Of a stretch of 64,000 bases of DNA, positions 9,628-62,433 are shown one piece after another. The stretch covers positions 2,656,001 to 2,720,000 of the forward strand of contig OZ244852.1 in the NCBI GenBank assembly GCA_965220965.1, given 5' to 3'. The DNA is from Candidatus Marinacidobacterium sp. (GTDB lineage Bacteria; Acidobacteriota; Vicinamibacteria; Marinacidobacterales; Marinacidobacteraceae). A program made the position numbers and the translations under genes. Position 1 is the stretch's first letter; every line of letters starts with the position of its first letter. Below the pieces are notes generated by a model. That model was not told the origin of the DNA. It did no database searches and was given only the letters and a program-made list of their open reading frames with translations.

Positions 9628-9663
9628 CGCGAGGGCGCCCCTGATCGGGGTTGCCCGCCCGCG

Positions 9664-9694
9664 CCGGGAGCGGCGTTCGTCGCTCCCGGTTTCT
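9664..9694 (+). terminator. GC-rich hairpin between convergent rplQ and EF-G paralogue; probable terminator
   Basis: CCGGGAGCGG-cgttcg-TCGCTCCCGG followed by TTTC. Confidence 0.6.
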
Positions 9695-25703: not shown

Positions 25704-26900
25704 ATGCGACTCGCCTCCTTCCTTCGCCAGTGCCAGGCGGTGACGGTCTACAACCTCTCGACGGTGTGGCAGCGCCGCAGCATCTCGCTCGTCGCCGTCT
25801 TCGGCATCGCGGCCGTCGCCGGCGTGCTGGTGGCGGTGCTCTCGATGGCCGCCGGGTTCCGCCAGGTGGTCACCGGCCAGGCGCGGGACGAGGTGGCCGT
25901 CGTCCTGCGGGGGGGCATGACCGCGGAGACCTCGAGCATCCTCTCCCGCGAGGACATCCAGGTCCTCGAGGCGGCGCCCGGCGTGGCGCGCGGGCCCTCG
26001 GGCCTGCTCGTCTCGCCCGAGCTCTTCGTCATCATCGACCGCCAGAAGATCGGGGTCGGCACCGACGCCAACGTCCCGTTGCGGGGCGTCGAGCCGAGCG
26101 CCTACGAGGTGCGCGGCGGCATCGAGGTCGTCGAGGGGCGTCGATTCGAGCCGGGCCGCAACGAGGTGATCGTCGGGGTGGCCGCGGCGGCGACCTTCGA
26201 GGGTCTGGCCGTGGGAGAGACGATCGATGTGGGCCGCGCCTCCTGGGAGGTCGTGGGCCACTTCACCGGCGGCGGAAGCCTCTGGGAGTCCGAGATCTGG
26301 ACGGACACCCGGGTTCTCCAGCAGATGTACCAGCGGGGCAATTCGTTCAACTCAGCGCTGGTGCGGCTGACCGACGCCGGGGAGTTCGAGCAGTTCCGCG
26401 ATGCGCTCGAGAACGACCCGCGGGTCAACCTTTCGGTGATGACCCAGACGACCTATCTCGCCCAGCAGTCCGAGGTGATCGAGGTCTTCATCTCGATCCT
26501 CGGATGGTTCGTGGTGGCGATGATGTCCGTCGGGGCGGTCTTCGCGGCGCTCAACACGATGTACGCCGCCGTGTCCTCCCGCGCCCGCGAGATCGCCACG
26601 CTCCGCGCCCTCGGCTTCGCCCGGCTTCCGGTCATGTTCTCGGTGGTCAGCGAGTCGGTGGTGTTCGCGCTCGTCGGCGCGCTGCTCGGCGGGACCGCCT
26701 CCTGGCTCATGTTCGACGGCTTCCGGGCCGCGACGATCAACTGGGCGTCCTTCAGCCAGGTGGCCTTCGCGTTCGAGGTCACGCCGGACCTGCTGGCGCA
26801 GGCCACCGTCCTGGCGCTCGTCATCGGCGGCATCGGCGGCTTCCTCCCGGCGGTGGGGGCCGTCCGCCGCAGCGTCGTCGGATCTCTCCGAGAGCAGTAG
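25704..26900 (+). CDS. ABC transporter permease (MacB/FtsX family)
   Basis: NTMYAAVSSRAREIATLRALGF; same topology as upstream permease. Confidence 0.92.
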   Translation: MRLASFLRQCQAVTVYNLSTVWQRRSISLVAVFGIAAVAGVLVAVLSMAAGFRQVVTGQARDEVAVVLRGGMTAETSSILSREDIQVLEAAPGVARGPSGLLVSPELFVIIDRQKIGVGTDANVPLRGVEPSAYEVRGGIEVVEGRRFEPGRNEVIVGVAAAATFEGLAVGETIDVGRASWEVVGHFTGGGSLWESEIWTDTRVLQQMYQRGNSFNSALVRLTDAGEFEQFRDALENDPRVNLSVMTQTTYLAQQSEVIEVFISILGWFVVAMMSVGAVFAALNTMYAAVSSRAREIATLRALGFARLPVMFSVVSESVVFALVGALLGGTASWLMFDGFRAATINWASFSQVAFAFEVTPDLLAQATVLALVIGGIGGFLPAVGAVRRSVVGSLREQ

Positions 26901-26913
26901 AACTACGGGCCAG

Positions 26914-26986
26914 GAATCGAAACTTGCGCTCCGCGCCAAGTTCCGATTCGAGCGTACGAATAGCGGGAGGGGGTTCCCCCCTCCCG
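26914..26986. repeat. Two adjacent palindromes (REP/MITE-like)
   Basis: GAATCG-AAACTTG-cgctccgcgc-CAAGTT-CCGATTC and CGGGAGGGGG-tt-CCCCCCTCCCG. Confidence 0.45.
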
Positions 26987-26990
26987 AACC

Positions 26991-27269
26991 CACCCCCGAG
27001 GGAGCACGAGGAACGGCGCGTGCTCCCGGCCCTGGATCAGGACAAGCCACGGAATGCGATCCGATCCAGGATCACCGTGATGATTAGCGCTGGGACCCAG
27101 TGGATAGACACGCCCAGCAACGCGGCGCTCCCACTTTCTGGGTCCACCCTCGAGGGGGGCGCGACGAACGGCGCGCGCCCGGCGGATCAGGACAGGCTGA
27201 GGAACACCAGCCGGTCGGCGATCACCAGCGCCAGCAGCGCCGGGACCCAGAGGATCGAGACCCTCAGCA
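26991..27269 (-). repeat. Diverged direct duplication of the ctaB 3' end plus downstream hairpin (copy A 26991-27119; copy B 27145-27269)
   Basis: Gap-free alignment of 27034-27119 with 27184-27269 (offset 150 bp), about 60/86 identical by hand count; both stop codons followed by related hairpins. Confidence 0.85.
27037..27147 (-). CDS. Putative 36-aa membrane peptide, or pseudogenic copy of the CtaB C-terminal helix
   Basis: GTG-start ORF MDPESGSAALLGVSIHWVPALIITVILDRIAFRGLS*; 16/27 aa identical to the CtaB C-terminus. Confidence 0.35.
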   Translation of the reverse strand: MDPESGSAALLGVSIHWVPALIITVILDRIAFRGLS

Positions 27270-28083
27270 CCCGGCGGGCGTCCGGGACGCTCCGGCCCCG
27301 AAAGAAGCGGATCGCGGCGGTCAGCGACCACATCCCGAGGCCGATCGCGCCCCCGAAGTAGACGGCCCCGGTCAGCCCGAGCGCCGTCGGCCACAGGCTC
27401 GCCACGACCAGGACGGCCGCGGATCCCACGATCCAGAGCGCGGTGGCGAGCCCGGAGGGATCGGCGGAGGGAAGCATCCGGAAGCCGCCCCGCTCGTAGT
27501 CCTCCCGGTGGATCCACGCGATGGCCAGCGCGTGCGGCATCTGCCAGGCGGCGAGGATCGCGAAGGTGGCGGCGCCTCTCCAGCCGATCGCCCCGGTCGC
27601 CGCCGTCCAGCCGCAGAGCGCCGGCAGCGCGCCCGGAACCGTCCCGACGAGCGTGTTCCAGGTCGAGCGGGACTTCAGCGGGGTGTAGACGGCCAGGTAG
27701 AGAACGACGCTGGCCATCGCCAGCGTCGCGGTGAGCGGGTTGACCAGCAGCGCCAGCAGGACGCCCCCGGCGCCGGCGAGCCCGATTCCCAGCCAGAGCG
27801 CCGCGCCTGGCGAGAGCCGACCCGACGGCAGCGGCCGGCTGCGGGTGCGCCGCATCCGCGCGTCGCGGTCCCGCTCCGCCCAGTGGTTCAGCGCCCCCGC
27901 CCCGGCGCTCGCGAGCGCGATGCCGGGGAGGAGAAACACCAGTCGGACGAGGTCCGGGGGGCCGGGAGCGAGCAGGAATCCAAGCGCCGCCGCCAGTGCG
28001 ACCAGCAGCGTGATCTCGGGCTTCGCCAGCTCGACCAGCGGGCGGAGGCCGGGGCCCCCGCCGCCCGCAGCGCTCCCGGTCAG
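27187..28083 (-). CDS. ctaB: Protoheme IX farnesyltransferase (heme O synthase); probable CTG start
   Basis: ELAKP, LNHWAERDRDARMRRTRSRPLPSG, YTPLKSR, WQMPH, DYERGGFRML; no ATG/GTG/TTG between the dcp stop and TM1. Confidence 0.9.
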   Translation of the reverse strand: MTGSAAGGGGPGLRPLVELAKPEITLLVALAAALGFLLAPGPPDLVRLVFLLPGIALASAGAGALNHWAERDRDARMRRTRSRPLPSGRLSPGAALWLGIGLAGAGGVLLALLVNPLTATLAMASVVLYLAVYTPLKSRSTWNTLVGTVPGALPALCGWTAATGAIGWRGAATFAILAAWQMPHALAIAWIHREDYERGGFRMLPSADPSGLATALWIVGSAAVLVVASLWPTALGLTGAVYFGGAIGLGMWSLTAAIRFFRGRSVPDARRVLRVSILWVPALLALVIADRLVFLSLS

Positions 28084-30215: not shown

Positions 30216-30299
30216 TCATCTCGACGGACGGCCCGCCGAGGCGTCAATTGTGGCGCGAGCCCGAATCCCGCGCCGCGAGCCGTTCGGCCCCGCGATCAA
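30216..30299 (-). pseudogene. Possible remnant of a zeta-toxin-like P-loop gene
   Basis: TTGA overlap with the antitoxin stop; MIAGPNGS then diverges and stops after 27 aa. Confidence 0.3.
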
Positions 30300-30553
30300 C
30301 GGGTGGTCCCGCCAGGGCGGGGAGGCGCCCGCATGGGTTCCCGGGGATCGAATTCGAGTTCGACTCCTCCGAGCGGCTCGAAGATGGCGCGGATCGCGGT
30401 TCCTTCGCCTTCCGCCCCCAGATGCTCCGCGGCGACCGCCAGATTCAGGATCCGCCGCGCCTCTTCCGCCAGCGAGACCCCGTGGCGGGCCGCCCGGACG
30501 CGCAGCCTCTCTTTCATGCGGGGGTCGAGATTCCGGATCGTCAGGTTCGCCAT
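30296..30553 (-). CDS. FitA-like ribbon-helix-helix antitoxin (orphan)
   Basis: MANLTIRNLDPRMKERLRVRAARHGVSLAEEARRIL; GAGGA upstream. Confidence 0.85.
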   Translation of the reverse strand: MANLTIRNLDPRMKERLRVRAARHGVSLAEEARRILNLAVAAEHLGAEGEGTAIRAIFEPLGGVELEFDPREPMRAPPRPGGTTR

Positions 30554-32953: not shown

Positions 32954-33205
32954 ATGAAGACGACGGTGGATGTCCACGACGCGCTGCTGCTGCGGGCGCG
33001 GCGCCGGGCGCTGGAGCGCGGCGGCACGCTCCGCTCGCTGATCGAAGAGGGACTCCGGCGCGCCCTGGATGAGCCTGCGTCCGGACCCTACCGGCTGCCC
33101 GACCGGAGCGTCGGCGACCCGGAGCGGCCCGACCCGCTCGCCGAGTACTCGTGGCCGGAACTGCGCCGCCTGATCCATGAGGATCGTGGAGGCCCCGATT
33201 CGTGA
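32954..33205 (+). CDS. vapB: VapB-family antitoxin
   Basis: MKTTVDVHDALL..ARRRA....TLRSLIEEGLR; GTGA overlap with PIN gene. Confidence 0.85.
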   Translation: MKTTVDVHDALLLRARRRALERGGTLRSLIEEGLRRALDEPASGPYRLPDRSVGDPERPDPLAEYSWPELRRLIHEDRGGPDS

Positions 33206-33639
33206 TCGCGGTCGACACGAGCGTTCTGGTGGATGCGCACCGCCGGGAGACCGCCTCGCACCGAGTCGCCGCCAGCGTTCTGCGCGACCTCGCCGAGGGC
33301 GGGCGGCCGTGGGCCATCCCGTGGCCCTGCGCCTACGAGTTCCTGAGCGTCGTCACGAACCGGCGGATCTGGAGCGATTCGGTTTCGACGATGGCGCAGG
33401 CCTGGGCGCAACTCGAGGCCTGGCTGGCTTCGCCCTCCCATCGCCTCCTTGGCGAGACTCCGGATTTCCCGCCCATTCTTCGCGACTTCGTGACCCGTCC
33501 GGGGGTTCGGGGGGCGGTCGTCCACGACGCGCGGATCGCGGCGATCTGTGTGGCGCACGGCGTGGATCTCCTGCTCACGCGCGACCGCGACTTCTCGCTC
33601 TTCCCGGAGCAGCGCACCCGGGACCCGCGCCGCGCCTGA
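33202..33639 (+). CDS. vapC: VapC-family PIN-domain toxin
   Basis: MIAVDTSVLV, YEFL, VHDARIAA, TRDRDF acidic PIN residues. Confidence 0.92.
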   Translation: MIAVDTSVLVDAHRRETASHRVAASVLRDLAEGGRPWAIPWPCAYEFLSVVTNRRIWSDSVSTMAQAWAQLEAWLASPSHRLLGETPDFPPILRDFVTRPGVRGAVVHDARIAAICVAHGVDLLLTRDRDFSLFPEQRTRDPRRA

Positions 33640-33660: not shown

Positions 33661-33897
33661 CTATCCGCCGAGATAGCGGTCGTGTTCCGTCGCGAGGTCG
33701 GCCGGGCCGACCCGGAAGCGCCCGTAGGCCTCCCGGGCGCGGCGGATCAGCTCATCCCGATCGGGCTGGAACTCGTTCCGCAGCGAAGCGGCCACCGCCT
33801 CGCGCACCAGCTCCGGGACGGAGCGCGTCCCGGAGCGGGCGCGGCGCTCGAGGGCTCGCATCTGCTCGTCGGTGAACTCGACCTCGATGCGCTTCAC
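33661..33897 (-). CDS. CopG/RHH antitoxin-like protein (orphan)
   Basis: MKRIEVEFTDEQMRALERRA...SVPELVREAV; C-terminal GRFR...DL...HDRYL typical of VapB-type antitoxins. Confidence 0.75.
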   Translation of the reverse strand: MKRIEVEFTDEQMRALERRARSGTRSVPELVREAVAASLRNEFQPDRDELIRRAREAYGRFRVGPADLATEHDRYLGG

Positions 33898-37845: not shown

Positions 37846-40002
37846 GTGCCGAGACCGCGGTCGGTGGCCGTCGCCGCCGGGCTCGCCTTCCTCGCTGTGG
37901 CGGGCGTAGCGGTCGCCCAGGGCCCCGACCGCCCGGCGCGGGCGCCGCTCGCCGAGGCGCGGTTCCGGGACGGCATGCAGGCGGTCGCCCGGCGCGATCA
38001 TGACCGCGCCCTCGAGTTCTTCCGGCACGCGCTCGCGCTGGATCCCGCCCACGACGGCGCCCACTTCTACGCCGGGCTCGCCTACCTCCAGCGCGGCTAC
38101 ACCAGCCTTCGGCTCGCGGACCACCACCTCTCCCGGGCGATCGCGCTCGACGACTCGAACCCCCGCCGACGTCACTGGCGCGGGATCGCGCGCCTCCGCC
38201 TCGGTGAGTTCGCCGCGGCCACCGCCGACCTCGAAGCCGTGCTCGAGCGCGAGCCGGACAGCCCGGCGACGCTTCGGGCGCTCGGCGCGGCGCTGCTGCG
38301 GCTCGGGGCCCCCGGGCCGGCGGCGGCGGCGCTGCGGCGGGCCATCGACCTCGAACCGGAGCTGCTCGAACCCCGCTGGAACCTGGGCGTCGCCGCCCGC
38401 CGTTCCGGCGAGCACCCGGCGGGGCTCCCGGAGAGCCACCGGCTGGATCTCCCGGCGCCGGATCCCGGACCCGCGCAGTCCCCCATCCGCTTCGAGGAAG
38501 TCTCGGCGGCCTCCGGGATCGAGCGCTGGTCCCGGGGCCGCGGCAGCGGCTGGGCCGACGTGGACGGCGACGGCGACCTCGACCTGTTCGCCCTCGGCAT
38601 CCGCGACCCCCACGCGCTTTACCGGAACGACCTCCTCGAAACCGGCGACCCGGTGTTTGCGCCGGTGGCCGCGGAGGCCGGCCTGCTCGACCCCCGCGGC
38701 GGCTGGTCGGCGCTCTTTTTCGACTACGACCGCGACGGCGACCCCGATCTCCATGTGACCCGCGACGGCTGGGACGGCCGCGACCGGAACAGCCTCTTCC
38801 GCAACGACGGCGGACGGTTCGAGGACGTCGCCGTGGCGGCCGGCGTGGCGAGCCCGCGCGACGCCTTCACCGCGGCGGTTGCGGACGTGAACCGCGACGG
38901 CTGGCTCGACCTCTACGTGGCGAACGGGGTGGCGACCCCCGGGGGTTCGCCGAACGAGCTCTTCCTCGGCGCCCCTGGCGGCCGCTTCCACGAACGGGGC
39001 GAGGCCTTCGGGGTGGCGGATCACGGGCGCTCGGTGGGGTCGGCCTTCGGGGACTACGACCGGGACGGCTGGCCCGATCTGCTCGTCGCCAACTTCTTCG
39101 GGGGCCCGGCGCTCTACCGGAACCTCGACGGGGTCGGGTTCCGCGAGGTGACCGGGTCGGTCGGGCTCGAGGCGCCCCACGAGGCGTTCGTCGGCTTCTT
39201 CTTCGATTACGACAACGACGGCTGGCTCGACATCTTCGTCGTCGGGTTCACCTCCGACATGGAGACCGCGCTCCGCAGCCAGCTCGAAGGCCGGGCCGTC
39301 CACCAGGGAAGCCGCCTCGCGCTCTACCGGAACGACCGCGACGGGACCTTCACCGACGTGACCGAGGCCGCCGGCCTCGCCTGGAACCTCGGCGCGATGG
39401 CCGCCGCCTTCGGCGACTACGACAACGACGGCTGGCTCGACCTGTTCATCGGCGCGGGCGCGCCTCCCATGGAGCGCCTCGAGCCGAACCGGCTGTTCCG
39501 GAACCTCGGCGACGGAACGTTCGCCGATGTCAGCGTCTCGGCCGGAGTGGACGACCTCGGCAAGGGGCATGGCGCCGCCTTCGCCGACTACGACCACGAC
39601 GGCGACCTCGACCTGTTCGTTCCGGTCGGGGGCGCGTTCCCCGGGGATCGCCAGCGCAGCGTCCTCTATCGGAACCCCGCCTCGCAGATGGCGACGCCGA
39701 ACCACTGGCTCCATGTTCTCCTCCGGGCCACCACGCTCCACCCCGACGCGGTCGGGGCCGAGGTCCGGCTTCGCGTCGAAGGGTCGGACGAGGCGCGCGT
39801 CCAGGTCCGGGAGGTCGCCATCGGCGGCGGTTTCGGGATCACCCCGAGCCCCATCCTCGAGTTCGGCCTCGGATCCCGTGACCGCGCCGCCGAGATCGCG
39901 ATCCGCTGGCCCGGGGGAGCACACCGGGTGTTGCGGGACATCCCCGCCGACCAGCGGATCCTGATCCGCGAGGACGAGCCCGGCTACCAGGTCCTCCGCT
40001 GA
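37846..40002 (+). CDS. TPR + FG-GAP/VCBS repeat + ASPIC/UnbV-like (CRTAC1-family) exported protein
   Basis: Signal peptide; N-terminal TPRs; repeated DYDNDGWLDL motifs; C-terminal FGLG...IRWP. Confidence 0.88.
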   Translation: MPRPRSVAVAAGLAFLAVAGVAVAQGPDRPARAPLAEARFRDGMQAVARRDHDRALEFFRHALALDPAHDGAHFYAGLAYLQRGYTSLRLADHHLSRAIALDDSNPRRRHWRGIARLRLGEFAAATADLEAVLEREPDSPATLRALGAALLRLGAPGPAAAALRRAIDLEPELLEPRWNLGVAARRSGEHPAGLPESHRLDLPAPDPGPAQSPIRFEEVSAASGIERWSRGRGSGWADVDGDGDLDLFALGIRDPHALYRNDLLETGDPVFAPVAAEAGLLDPRGGWSALFFDYDRDGDPDLHVTRDGWDGRDRNSLFRNDGGRFEDVAVAAGVASPRDAFTAAVADVNRDGWLDLYVANGVATPGGSPNELFLGAPGGRFHERGEAFGVADHGRSVGSAFGDYDRDGWPDLLVANFFGGPALYRNLDGVGFREVTGSVGLEAPHEAFVGFFFDYDNDGWLDIFVVGFTSDMETALRSQLEGRAVHQGSRLALYRNDRDGTFTDVTEAAGLAWNLGAMAAAFGDYDNDGWLDLFIGAGAPPMERLEPNRLFRNLGDGTFADVSVSAGVDDLGKGHGAAFADYDHDGDLDLFVPVGGAFPGDRQRSVLYRNPASQMATPNHWLHVLLRATTLHPDAVGAEVRLRVEGSDEARVQVREVAIGGGFGITPSPILEFGLGSRDRAAEIAIRWPGGAHRVLRDIPADQRILIREDEPGYQVLR

Positions 40003-53203: not shown

Positions 53204-53357
53204 GTTTCTCCGGCGGAGGGCGCGCGCGGAGTCGCGGGCCCGTCCTCCCGGTGGGTTTCGGCGGCGGGAGACCCCGCGGCGGTTGATACGCTCGAATCGG
53301 AATGGCGCGGAGCGCGAGAGTCGATTCCCGTCTGCTCTAGACTCCGCCGCCCCACCG

Positions 53358-55673
53358 ATGCCCGCCGCCTCCTCCGCCCCCGCGCTGATCGTCGTCGAAT
53401 CGAACGCCAAGGCGAAGACCATCGCCCGGTTCCTGGGGCGCGACTACCGGGTGCTCGCCTCCGGCGGCCATGTCCGCGACCTGCCGCGCCGCGGACTCTC
53501 GGTGGACATCGAGAACGGTTTTCGTCCGCGTTTCGAGGTCGTCCCGGACCGGGCGAAGATCCTCGACGCGCTGAAGCGCGAGGCGAAGAAAGCCTCCCGC
53601 ATCTTCCTCGCCACCGATCCGGACCGGGAGGGCGAGGCGATCAGTCACGACCTCGCCGATGAGTTCCGCGCCGCGCTCGGAAGGCGACGGGCGTCGGTGC
53701 CGATCGAGCGGATCGCCTTCCACGAGATCACCCCGCCAGCCGTCCGGAGAGCGATCAGCGAGGCGGGCGAGATCGACGCCAACAAGGTTCAGGCGCAGCA
53801 GACGCGCCGCGTGCTGGACCGGATCGTGGGCTACCGGATCTCGCCGCTGCTATCGCGGAAGGTCGGACCGAGGCTCTCGGCGGGCCGCGTCCAGTCGGTC
53901 GCGCTCCGGCTCATCTGCGAGCGGGAGCGGGAGATCCGGCGCTTCCGCATGGAGGAGTACTGGACCCTCGAGGCGCATCTCCGGACGGCGTCGGGGGACC
54001 CGCTGCTCGCGATACCCGAGGTTCCGAAGAGCCTGCCAAAGGAGCCGGCCGCCCGCGAGGAGGGCGTCGCCCGCGAAATCCAGCGCCATCTCGAGAGCTG
54101 CCGGTTCCGGGTCGACGAGATCGAGCAAAAGGAGCGCCGGGACAAGGCTCCGCCGCCCTTCATCACCTCGACGATGCAGCGGCAGGCCGCTTCGGCCTTC
54201 CGCTTCCCCGCCGCGCGCACGATGCGCACCGCGCAGGCGCTCTACGAGGGAGTGGACCTGGGGTCCGGCGAAAGGGCTGGCCTGATCACCTATCTCCGGA
54301 CCGACTCGACGCGCATCTCGCAGCAGGCCCTGACCGAGGTGCGGGAGTGGATCGGCAACCGGTACGGGGCGGACGCGGTTCCGGCGCAGCCTCACCATTT
54401 CCGCAAGCAGAAGGGGGCCCAGGACGCTCACGAGGCCATCCGCCCGACTTCGGTTCAGCGAACCCCGGAGCAACTCGCGCCGTACCTGAACGACGACCAG
54501 CGCCGGCTCTACACCATGATCTGGGAACGGTTCGTGGCCTCCCAGATGAAGCCGGCCGTCTGGCTCGACACGCGAGTAACGATCCGCGCCGAGCGGGTGG
54601 ATGGGAACCCGGCGCCCGGGATCGAGGGCTTCGGAACGGCCCCGGAGCGGCTGTTCGCCACCGGGTCGGTGCTCGCGGCGCCCGGCTACCGGGTGCTCTA
54701 CCGCGAGACCGCCGAGGATGAGGGATCCGCCGACGCGCGGGAGGGCCGGGCGAGGCTCCCGGCGCTCGCGGCGGGGCAGGAACTGAGCTCGGACCGGATC
54801 CTGCCGATCTGCCACTTCACCCAGCCGCCGAAGCGATTCAGCGAGGCGGGGCTGATCCGCAAACTGGAGCAGAACGGCATCGGAAGACCCAGCACCTACG
54901 TGCCGATCCTGCGCAAGATCAAGGATCGCGAGTACGTGCGAACCAGGGCCCGGGTGTTCATCCCCACCGAAGTGGGAATGCTCGTCTCCGATCTGCTCTC
55001 CGGGTGTTTCGACGACCTCTTCAACGAGCGCTACACCGCGGCGATGGAGGAGAACCTCGACCGGATCGAGCAGGGCGACGCCGACTTCGAGGGCACGCTG
55101 ACCTCGTTCTACCGCGATTTCGTGGCGGACCTCGACCGGGCGGTCGTGCAGATGCCCCGGGTGAAGGGTCTTCCCACCGCCGAGGCGTGCGATCAGTGTG
55201 GTCGCAGCCTCGTCCTGCGCTGGAGCGGCGGCGAGAAGTTCCTCGGTTGCGAGGGGTTCCCCGAGTGCCGCGGAAGCCGGAGCCTTGGGGAAGGCCTCGA
55301 CGAGGCGGCGGATGACGCTCCGGTGTGCCCGGAGTGCGGCGCGCCGATGGCGGCGAGGCGCGGACGCTTCGGGGCGTTCCTCGGATGCAGCCGCTACCCG
55401 GAGTGCCAGACCATCCTGAAGCTCCGCGATGGACGGCTGGTGCCGCGCAAGCCGCCCGAGCCGGTCGACGGCCAGTGCCCCGAGTGCGGGAAGGGGCTCG
55501 TCCGCCGCCAGGGGCGGCGCGGACCGTTCGTGGGCTGCAGCGGCTTTCCCGCCTGTCGCTACATCCAGCCGCGACCCGGCGGACGGAAGAAGAAGGCCTC
55601 GCGGAAGCGGACGACGCGTTCGGCCGCCACCGCCTCGCGCGGCGGCCGCCGACCAGGAGCGCCGGCGCCTTGA
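53358..55673 (+). CDS. topA: DNA topoisomerase I
   Basis: LIVVES, GHVRDL, ATDPDREGEAI, SAGRVQS, LITYLRTDS, AHEAIRPT; three C-terminal zinc ribbons. Confidence 0.97.
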   Translation: MPAASSAPALIVVESNAKAKTIARFLGRDYRVLASGGHVRDLPRRGLSVDIENGFRPRFEVVPDRAKILDALKREAKKASRIFLATDPDREGEAISHDLADEFRAALGRRRASVPIERIAFHEITPPAVRRAISEAGEIDANKVQAQQTRRVLDRIVGYRISPLLSRKVGPRLSAGRVQSVALRLICEREREIRRFRMEEYWTLEAHLRTASGDPLLAIPEVPKSLPKEPAAREEGVAREIQRHLESCRFRVDEIEQKERRDKAPPPFITSTMQRQAASAFRFPAARTMRTAQALYEGVDLGSGERAGLITYLRTDSTRISQQALTEVREWIGNRYGADAVPAQPHHFRKQKGAQDAHEAIRPTSVQRTPEQLAPYLNDDQRRLYTMIWERFVASQMKPAVWLDTRVTIRAERVDGNPAPGIEGFGTAPERLFATGSVLAAPGYRVLYRETAEDEGSADAREGRARLPALAAGQELSSDRILPICHFTQPPKRFSEAGLIRKLEQNGIGRPSTYVPILRKIKDREYVRTRARVFIPTEVGMLVSDLLSGCFDDLFNERYTAAMEENLDRIEQGDADFEGTLTSFYRDFVADLDRAVVQMPRVKGLPTAEACDQCGRSLVLRWSGGEKFLGCEGFPECRGSRSLGEGLDEAADDAPVCPECGAPMAARRGRFGAFLGCSRYPECQTILKLRDGRLVPRKPPEPVDGQCPECGKGLVRRQGRRGPFVGCSGFPACRYIQPRPGGRKKKASRKRTTRSAATASRGGRRPGAPAP

Positions 55674-56641
55674 CGCCGGGGGCCGGATCCCGTCCGGCCC
55701 CCCGGCGGTCCGCCTCGCTCGCCGCCCTGACCGAGGCGTTCCTCGGCGATCTCGAGGAGCGCCGCGGCGCGTCGGAGCAGACCGTCCGCGCGTACGCCGC
55801 CGACCTGGCCCAGTTCCTCGCCTTTCTGGAAGAGCCGTCAGAAGGCGATCGGGGCGCGGACAAGGGACAGCCTTCGCCCGGGGACGTGGACGTCCACCGG
55901 CTGCGCGGGTGGCTGGCGTCGCTTCACGGGCGCGGGCTCTCCCGGACCACGGTGGCGCGCAAGCTGGCTGCGCTCCGGTCCTTCTACCGGTTCCTGGCCC
56001 GGTCCGGCGCCGCCGACTCCGACCCAGCCCGCGGGCTCCGGGCGCCCCGGTTGCCGGCGCGGCTCCCGGCCAGGGTCGAAATGGAGGAGGTCGAGGCCCT
56101 GCTCCACGCCCCGGACCCCGGCGAGCCGCTCGGCGCCCGCAATCTGGCGATGCTGGAGCTTCTCTACGGGACCGGAGTGCGGGTCTCGGAACTCGTGGGA
56201 CTCGACCTGCCCGACGTGAACCGCCGGGGACGGATCCTGCGCGTCCTTGGCAAGGGCGGGAAGGAACGCGTCGTTCCGTTCGGCGAGGTGGCGGATGACG
56301 CCCTCGGGCTGTACCTGGCCGCACGAGGCGAGCTGGTCTCGCGCGAGGGCGACGCGCTGGCGCTGTTCCTGAACCACCGGGGCGGGCGGCTCTCCGACCG
56401 GGCTGTCCGCAATGTCGTCCGGCGCTATCTCGGAGAGGCCGGGCTTCAGCGGCTCGCAGGGGTCGTCACCCCCCACACCCTGCGCCACGCCTTCGCGACC
56501 CACCTGCTCGACCGGGGCGCGGACCTGCGCGCGATCCAGGAGCTGCTCGGGCACGCCGATCTCGCCACGACCCAGAAGTACACCCACATCTCGACGACCC
56601 GGCTCATGGAGGTCTACTCCCGCTCCCACCCGCGCGACTGA
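55670..56641 (+). CDS. xerC: Tyrosine recombinase XerC-like
   Basis: TTGA overlap with topA; RVSE, GKG, HTLRH, LGH, TQKY catalytic set. Confidence 0.88.
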   Translation: MTPGAGSRPAPRRSASLAALTEAFLGDLEERRGASEQTVRAYAADLAQFLAFLEEPSEGDRGADKGQPSPGDVDVHRLRGWLASLHGRGLSRTTVARKLAALRSFYRFLARSGAADSDPARGLRAPRLPARLPARVEMEEVEALLHAPDPGEPLGARNLAMLELLYGTGVRVSELVGLDLPDVNRRGRILRVLGKGGKERVVPFGEVADDALGLYLAARGELVSREGDALALFLNHRGGRLSDRAVRNVVRRYLGEAGLQRLAGVVTPHTLRHAFATHLLDRGADLRAIQELLGHADLATTQKYTHISTTRLMEVYSRSHPRD

Positions 56642-61025: not shown

Positions 61026-61113
61026 TGGCGGAGGGAGGGGGATTCGAACCCCCGGACCCTGGCGGGTCAGTGGTTTTCAAGACCACCGCCTTCGTCCGCT
61101 CGGCCATCCCTCC
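61026..61113 (-). tRNA. tRNA-Ser (TGA)
   Basis: GGAGGGA acceptor stem, anticodon loop CT-TGA-AA, long variable arm, GGTTCGAATCC, encoded CCA. Confidence 0.96.
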
Positions 61114-61155
61114 GATATCGGACCGGCTGCGGGGGCCGGGACTCGTGGACTCGAT

Positions 61156-62100
61156 CTAGGGCTTCGGGAGCGCGGCGAGCATCTGTTCGGCGGTCGCCGC
61201 GGCGACGCTGCCGGGCTCGACCTCGATCGCCATGTTGAGGTGCTCGGCGGCGGTCTCCAGGTTCCCCTGGTTCAGGTACACCATCGCGATCTGGAGGTGC
61301 GGCTCCGCCCAGTCGAGCTTCCGCTCGGCGGCCACCTCGTAGTACTCGATCGCCTTGTCCATCTCGCCGTTCTGGAAATAGATCTGTCCGACGTTGAACG
61401 GGATCACTTCGTCATCCGTCGAGTTGACGGCCTGCTCGAAGTATCCGACGGCCTCGTCGAGGTCGCCGGCCCCGACCGCGATGTTCGCCATCGAGACGAG
61501 GGCCCCGGCGTGCGCGGGCTCCTGGTCGAGGACGATCTGGTAGGCCGCCTTGGCCTCGTCCATCCGGTTCAGCTCGCGCAGGACCGCGCCGCGGTTCAGA
61601 TTGATCTGGTAGACCGTGGGATCGGCGGCCAGGATTTCGTCGTACTTGACGAGCGCCTCGTCAAACCGGCCGGCGGTGTGGAGCTCCTGCGCCTCGGCGA
61701 GCAGACCTCCGCCGGTTCCCGCCGACCGCCCCATCTGGGCCCGCTCCAGGACCAGATCCATGTCCGGGTTCTGCCCGGCCTGACGCATTGGCGCCTGGTA
61801 GTTGTAGGGCATGAACCCGGGCGCGGACGCGGAGAAATCGTAGGTGCGGCTCCGGAACCCGAGGATCGCCCAGCGACCCCGGTCGTCCGTCGTCGCCTCC
61901 AGCACGCGGGCCGAATCGCCGGCGCTCGCGGTGACCGTGGCGCCCTCGATCGGGTTGCCGTCCTGGTCCTTCACGGTCCCCGAGACGCGACCGGTGCCCA
62001 TCTGGGCCAGGGCGGTTGTCGCGAGCAGGGTCAGCGCCAGGCCAGCGCCGAACGAGGCTCCGGCGACGCGCCGGATCCGGGTTTCCTGGTTCATGGTCAT
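61156..62100 (-). CDS. Exported protein with carboxypeptidase-regulatory-like domain and TPRs
   Basis: ATG 62100 after GGAGA; signal peptide; [20 protein letters not shown]; TPR repeats. Confidence 0.85.
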
Positions 62101-62175
62101 CGGGTCTCCTCCCGCTCGCTCACGGTCGCTCATGAGGCCGACCGAAGGCTCGGCATCCGGCCAGCGCGCCCCGGC

Positions 62176-62249
62176 TGGCTGGGAAGCAGGGACTCGAACC
62201 CCGATTCCACGGTCCAGAGCCGTGTGTCCTGCCATTGGACGACTTCCCA
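62176..62249 (-). tRNA. tRNA-Gln (CTG)
   Basis: TGGGAAG/CTTCCCA acceptor stem, CT-CTG-GA loop, GGTTCGAGTCC, CCA. Confidence 0.96.
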
Positions 62250-62346
62250 TAGCTGCCCGGACCCTGAAGGATAGCAGCAGGCGCCGCCGCCCCCCGCCGA
62301 GCGAGGTACCATCCGGCGGCGCGCGGAGCTTGCCCGAATCGTGCCT

Positions 62347-62433
62347 GGAGAGGTGCTGGAGTGGCTGAACAGGGCTGCCTGCTAAGCAGTTGCGCGGGGA
62401 ACCGCGCCGAGGGTTCGAATCCCTCCCTCTCCG
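62347..62433 (+). tRNA. tRNA-Ser (GCT), CCA not encoded
   Basis: GGAGAGG/CCTCTCC acceptor stem, CT-GCT-AA loop, long variable arm, GGTTCGAATCC; followed by CCG. Confidence 0.94.

Follow-up and report, generated by a model that had tools for sequence, protein, structure and literature searches.

The window, by which we mean the whole 64,000-nucleotide stretch of DNA analysed here, contains an intact ctaB gene specifying heme O synthase, the product of which matches TIGR01473 with 244.7 bits against a cut-off of 210.3. The gene is neighboured by a convergent MacB-type ABC operon on one side and by an M3 peptidase gene upstream, and is solitary in the sense that it lies outside any cytochrome oxidase operon, behind the Dcp-like M3 peptidase. 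In a genome of 70% GC its codon usage is host-like, with a CAI of 0.77 for the whole gene and 0.80 for the last 27 codons. No ATG, GTG or TTG is found ahead of the first conserved helix of ctaB (window 28081-28083, minus strand). Because the Met of the two nearest homologs (P0002 and P0003) aligns with a CTG-encoded Leu of ctaB, and because this candidate CTG overlaps the TGA of the M3 peptidase gene, translation of ctaB probably begins at this CTG, coupled to that of the peptidase gene. In the database the CtaB entry (P0001, 250 aa) is too short, as it begins at a later GTG.

The nearest known homologs of this CtaB are only 66-67% identical to it. In a tree of 60 rows (the CtaB of the window plus P0002-P0060, i.e. 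59 of the 119 homologs used below) it groups with P0002 and P0003 on a long branch (0.53). For TopA, 35 relatives are listed at 64-81% identity, the nearest at 79-81%, after which identity drops to 48% or less, in rows whose named members include several Acidobacteriota; given this fall, the organism would appear to belong to a deep, thinly sampled lineage near Acidobacteriota. A comparison of CtaB with phages returned seven partial matches, all distant, and no solved relative was found by sequence.

Elsewhere in the window, toxin-antitoxin-like small genes surround a sulfatase-TPR gene at 30296-30553 (minus), 32954-33639 (plus) and 33661-33897 (minus); the set comprises a PIN-domain gene with its upstream partner, an RHH gene, and, judged by eye, a plasmid-stability-like ORF. 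An FG-GAP/ASPIC-UnbV TPR protein carries internal repeats at a spacing of about 210 bp (39043-39652), which are ordinary domain repeats. The topA gene is followed by a XerC-like recombinase (53358-56641), three tRNA genes lie at 61029-62433, and a strong hairpin (9628-9693, z about -4) separates convergent rplQ-like and elongation-factor-G-like genes.

Between ctaB and the permease gene lie a diverged copy of the ctaB 3' end and a palindromic repeat (Table 1). Folding of 26901-27030 is predicted to be strong (z about -4), and no classical terminator or promoter was found in this intergenic region.

Table 1. Features of the ctaB 3' region and of the associated repeat.
Feature	Position	Strand	Match or remark
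MacB/FtsX-type permease gene, convergent, closing the intergenic region	25704..26900	+	PF12704, PF02687
Dispersed palindromic (REP-like) repeat, two hairpins	26913..26994	.	78% over 82 nt with second copy, E 1e-11
Hairpin B, 9-bp stem, loop as in hairpin A	27000..27027	-	
Copy, diverged and in frame with ctaB, of the final 27 codons and the TGA	27037..27120	-	
Unit junction; a brief CGCC resembles the ctaB sequence immediately preceding the copied part	27121..27123	-	by eye
Repeat start, truncated and degenerate (apparent spacer), holding SD-like GGGAG	27124..27148	-	register match to 26970-26989
Unit 1 of the tandem (active), made up of the final 27 codons of ctaB, the TGA, hairpin A and the shortened repeat start	27124..27270	-	105/152 columns identical to unit 2
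Hairpin A behind the ctaB stop, 7-bp stem, 10-nt loop	27157..27180	-	
ctaB (heme O synthase), intact	27187..28083	-	TIGR01473, PF01040
Second copy of the repeat	53250-53328		downstream of an SDR gene

The initial annotation of this DNA had aligned 27034-27119 without gaps to the last codons of ctaB (27184-27269) at an offset of 150 bp, with 60 of 86 nucleotides identical. We reproduced this alignment, the local score of which is 130, against a mean of 54 (sd 10.7) and a maximum of 88.5 for random pairs (up to 300) from the window; blastn between the copies gave an E value of 1e-12 across 139 nt. The identity of the two peptides (16 of 27 residues, with the stop at the same position), the six codons listed as synonymously changed, and the hairpins with a similar CGCCGTTC loop behind both stops were also as described. 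The duplication is larger than the annotation had it, however, as it takes in not only the hairpin but also the start of the dispersed repeat. Homology spans a full unit of ~150 bp (27124-27270 versus 26970-27120) that holds the last 27 ctaB codons, the stop, the hairpin and the first ~25 nt of the repeat, and since it runs on through the hairpin into what looks like a spacer, the region consists of two head-to-tail units. In the first unit the repeat breaks off after 25 nt, whereas the second runs on into the whole element. The longest exact word common to both is 11 nt, at the stop, and five nucleotides are identical at the start of the copy. In an AlphaFold model of CtaB (mean pLDDT 96) the copied 27 residues form the C-terminal, outer part of the last helix (H264-295). 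Two of the seven pairs common to hairpins A and B are changed on both sides (G-C versus A-T), as would be expected if each unit had once been a working gene end.

The assignment of the spacer as a repeat start rests on its alignment in a fixed register after a shared GGTGG, in which 11 of 20 nucleotides are identical to 26970-26989 (p 0.014) and 18 of 20 agree in purine/pyrimidine class (p 1.5e-4). The spacer can also base-pair with the first codons of the copy (p 0.0035-0.006), as an inverted copy of ctaB arising by tandem-inversion duplication might do; we dropped this idea because the pairing is nearly as good with the active end (-24.8) as with the copy (-28.5), and because of the in-register match to the repeat.

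Among 48 gene ends scored (49 genes were chosen and one was dropped at the window end), ctaB alone has a duplicate, with a protein score of 75 against 40 for the next gene; in the corresponding DNA comparison it scored 79.5 and the runner-up, which on inspection had no evident copy, 59.5. The region around the copy had no match among plasmids and phages.

The repeat itself behaves as a multi-copy extragenic palindrome: the 64 kb contain two copies, both lying downstream of a gene, and the hairpins of the first are close to perfect, those of the second degenerate. Rfam covariance models gave no match at gathering score in the region (best E 2.7). A search for the repeat pattern in GTDB genomes gave 30 loci, none of which extended convincingly (best E 2e-4, partial) and which we judged to be chance. 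The second repeat copy had three near-identical weak matches to plasmids, the one examined of which was likewise judged to be chance. GTAG/CGTC-tagged REP elements provide a reference class (PMC3733652). Like those described there, the repeat is an extragenic palindrome found downstream of genes and between convergent genes, and a GTAG within it provides the TAG stop of the permease; unlike them, it is longer (about 80 bp), has only two copies in 64 kb, and carries its GTAG 12 nt from the stem in one copy and not at all in the second. A GTGG precedes one stem in both copies, and no RAYT was found among the proteins scanned. On these comparisons the ~80-bp palindromic repeat seems to be undescribed. 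A general duplication mechanism tied to the repeat was rejected, as the second repeat copy has no gene-end duplicate beside it and ctaB alone has one among the 48 genes.

The initial annotation had also read the differences between the copies as a sign of protein-level selection, pointing to the synonymous changes. Their number does not bear this out: six are observed where 4.0-5.0 are expected (p 0.19 and 0.38, 20,000 simulations each), which is chance level and no proof of selection. Selection is indicated instead by the fit of the copy to the protein family and by the positions at which changes fall. We built a family profile on the final 27 residues of 119 homologs (of 4019 matches, the 120 best listed were taken, less the window's own), against which the copy scores 27.6 bits and the active ctaB end 40.5; neutral mutants of the active end with an equal number of changes average -15 to -27. 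The score of the copy was attained by one to three of 20,000 neutral simulations that began with an identical duplicate (p 5e-5 and 1.5e-4), and by none or one of 20,000 when two to four template switches were added (p at most 5e-5). In the seven family-conserved columns after the junction codon, four of the seven third positions differ versus none of the 14 first and second positions (p 0.006); with the junction codon included, the counts are 4/8 and 1/16 (p 0.028).

The residues of the copy point in the same direction. Lineage-rare residues common to the copy and the active end, namely W8 (found in 2 of the 119 best homologs), V16 (in none) and S27 (in 4), argue that the copy split from the active gene inside this lineage, and G3 of the copy is the residue of the two nearest homologs. 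Where the copy differs from the active end it often does so in a family-typical way, with L18 present in 48, G25 in 38, I21 in 33 and I13 in 20 of the 119. Profile fit, position of the changes, shared rare residues and the compensated hairpin together indicate that the copy once formed the end of a working CtaB of the same lineage, and that it is not a decayed twin of the present gene. The selection so detected concerns past function only, since the data are compatible with an allele that first worked and later decayed neutrally.

The present state of the copy differs from that of a gene end in use. Its CAI is 0.33 against a mean of 0.79 over 538 windows, 0.6% of which are as low, and falls below that of all 42 true gene ends (lowest 0.53), a set that excludes one lower-scoring ORF cut by the window edge. 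It has seven rare codons versus one in the 27 of the active end, and its H7 and T15 (changes L7H and L15T) occur in none of the 119 best homologs. In a best-case two-phase null, in which family-compatible differences are assigned to a functional phase and 10-13 nucleotide changes are left over, a once-functional allele with 10-13 neutral changes was not rejected (p 0.23-0.56); this indicates compatibility and is no proof of neutrality, because the null was tuned to the copy and is biased towards a fit. The copy also contains three short perfect palindromes where 0.3 are expected (p 0.009), and its folding is somewhat stronger than that of mutated controls (p 0.03), with no significant excess over synonymous recodings (p 0.126). 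These features may stem from template switching that corrected palindromes, or from mild selection acting on RNA structure at the 3' end, and the most the copy would do is provide two convergent genes with further hairpins in their 3' untranslated region.

We consider it likely that the unit at 26970-27120 represents what remains of the 3' end of a second, once-working ctaB allele, either added from a sister lineage or left over from a deleted tandem paralog, so that the copy is most likely an ordinary recombination or duplication scar. Among the origins first proposed, this is closest to a displaced 3' end left by gene replacement or integration, which holds up as the best reading save that no integrative element lies between the copies. 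The second allele and the active gene would have grown apart during a time when selection acted on both, and the second allele would have contributed the last helix, the stop, the 3' hairpin and the following repeat; now untranslated behind the active gene, the copy would be drifting, as seen in its rare codons, L7H, L15T and short palindromes. By one route, DNA from a sister lineage would have entered by homologous recombination at one end and been joined illegitimately at the opposite end, this joint running from inside the repeat start to ctaB about 27 codons before the stop, such that an end was added rather than replaced. By the other, ctaB would have been duplicated in tandem, the paralogs would have diverged, and a deletion would have left the last 27 codons of the second. 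The two routes cannot be told apart from the present data.

Both routes have counterparts. A fragment that diverged under protein selection and then decays, with a microhomology deletion junction, is what is generally known of tandem-paralog remnants, from which our case differs in that no full-length second ctaB was seen in the 64-kb window. Integration that is homologous on one side and illegitimate on the other is a described process (PMC2884548), and the copy resembles the small homeologous variable segments reported there in being under 500 bp and about 25-30% diverged from the resident sequence, and in lacking long homology at one junction. PMC3784515 mentions a small tandem duplication of the additive kind. 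Neither a donor nor a paralog was found among the 119 best homologs or in peptide searches, the lineage being thinly sampled; the best homolog end, among the 60 rows compared, matches 14 of 27 residues of the copy, and 22 of the 119 best homologs match the copy better than they match the active end. Unsampled sister ctaB alleles are nevertheless to be expected, because the active CtaB lies on a long branch. A donor tract extending into the permease gene was rejected, as the permease codons are host-like right to the end of that gene.

Some observations sit less easily with a relic allele. The three palindromes and the somewhat better folding are features that a passive relic does not require, and the copy begins exactly at a TTG, in frame with ctaB. 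Bacteria usually delete useless DNA fast, so persistence of the copy needs either a recent origin or a structural role.

That TTG (27120), which lies exactly where the copied part starts and where the active gene has GTG, is the basis of a rival account in which an in-place duplication was kept because it is translated, either as a 27-aa one-helix membrane peptide or as a helix added to CtaB by read-through of its TGA, the product being one that could compete with or replace the last helix of CtaB. In favour of this account are a GGGAG 7 nt upstream of the TTG (-6.2 kcal/mol, inside the range of real genes), a frame open from the ctaB stop to the stop of the copy, conserved columns free of replacements, and a last helix that is still hydrophobic (19-residue mean 1.92, versus 2.22 in the active end). 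However, the GGGAG derives from the repeat, the copy at 53250 having it too; the predicted fold leaves three of the five GGGAG bases no more than 2% unpaired, and about 10% of random 20-mers score as well. The in-frame offset has a prior of one in three, and H7 and T15 have no precedent in the family sample. Peptide searches, which are weak below 40 aa, returned nothing usable by way of a related small protein, their single match being an RCC1-repeat protein. Read-through is less likely than a separate peptide; a UGA followed by U is a strong stop context and weighs against it. We regard the translated account as a whole as unlikely, and a 27-aa peptide from TTG 27120 likewise; about as improbable is its fuller form, in which the last helix is kept as a membrane peptide with a hairpin-hidden, repeat-derived RBS that acts by helix mimicry on CtaB or oxidase assembly. 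The 36-aa mini-ORF from GTG 27147, proposed at the outset as a peptide mimicking the helix, exists as a frame, but the peptide is unsupported because its GTG lacks a spaced SD and does not fall within the coding homology.

The remaining alternatives account for the copy by other kinds of DNA rearrangement. An integrative element that entered at the ctaB 3' end and was later almost wholly deleted would leave an attR-type fragment, as with icd/icdC at prophage e14 of E. coli K-12, where the C-terminal fragment of a gene is displaced (PMC13626634); a general rule for displaced gene ends is given in PMC12540744. As described for icd/icdC, an intact housekeeping gene is followed by a diverged, same-orientation piece of its own C-terminal end, the two differing by synonymous and conservative changes (PMC13626634). 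An end carried in by an element may have foreign codon usage. Yet the ctaB pieces are about 65 bp apart rather than 15 kb, with no prophage or integrase between them, and differ from icd/icdC also in that the copy is much less identical, that the hairpin and repeat start are duplicated too, and that the foreign-looking codons are in the displaced piece (PMC13626634). Between the units there is only the hairpin and a 25-nt fragment of the repeat, the host-like end is the active one (the reverse of a fresh integration), the region is free of phage and plasmid matches, and the sole integrase-family match among 35 proteins scanned in Pfam is the XerC-like gene 28 kb away beside topA. The copy therefore falls outside the icd/icdC class, there being no integrase-bearing element between its pieces, and we hold an attR origin to be quite improbable. 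In the open-licence literature we found no report of a relic of this kind, or of an integration or attachment site, at ctaB.

A duplication of the present ctaB end by slippage or template switching, followed by neutral decay and never selected, would account for the direct tandem layout and the chance-level synonymous count; the palindromes and an inverted echo in the spacer also suggest template switching, in which substitution clusters create short perfect inverted repeats of the kind seen in the copy (PMC5453318). Template switching alone cannot explain the family-compatible protein sequence of the copy, however, and the profile test rejects such an origin with or without switches (p at most 3e-4). 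The echo is better read as the degenerate repeat start. Switches that return upstream of the point of leaving were not observed in human-chimpanzee data (PMC5453318), which, although evidence from another kingdom, weighs against a one-step fold-back origin, and we rate this account as very improbable. Still less probable, in our estimate, is a misassembly that fused two strains: no exact word longer than 11 nt is common to the units, the copy differs from a live gene in its rare codons and odd residues, and the proteins of the window sit on a 2.88-Mb contig, which suggests a long-read assembly. Silent gene-conversion cassettes of the pilS, vls and msp2 type involve several cassettes, high-identity flanks and mosaic expressed alleles. 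The copy is indeed an adjacent, in-frame and family-compatible alternative helix, as would suit the initial suggestion of a silent cassette exchanging the last helix of CtaB, but there is one copy only, at about 69% identity, and none at any other of the 48 genes scored. The rare-codon counts, one in the active end versus seven in the copy, indicate that the active end contains no converted tract. The 11-nt longest word is shorter than what RecA uses (PMC2884548), and this suggestion we consider the least probable of all. A diversity-generating retroelement was rejected, as the 26 mismatches involve all four bases and are not adenine-specific (8 of 26 at A in the copy and 2 of 26 in ctaB); no reverse transcriptase was found among the 35 proteins scanned in Pfam.

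What the copy would mean depends on which of these accounts is true. If the 27-aa frame were translated, it would mark a route from a gene to a peptide that mimics its own last helix, of interest to the study of small proteins; the peptide would be a small regulator born from the C-terminus of its own target. If, as we think likely, the copy is instead the relic end of a second ctaB allele, it is a tidy and ordinary scar that records a second allele of a housekeeping gene, and it would illustrate that 'conserved-looking' mini-ORFs behind genes can reflect past rather than present selection.
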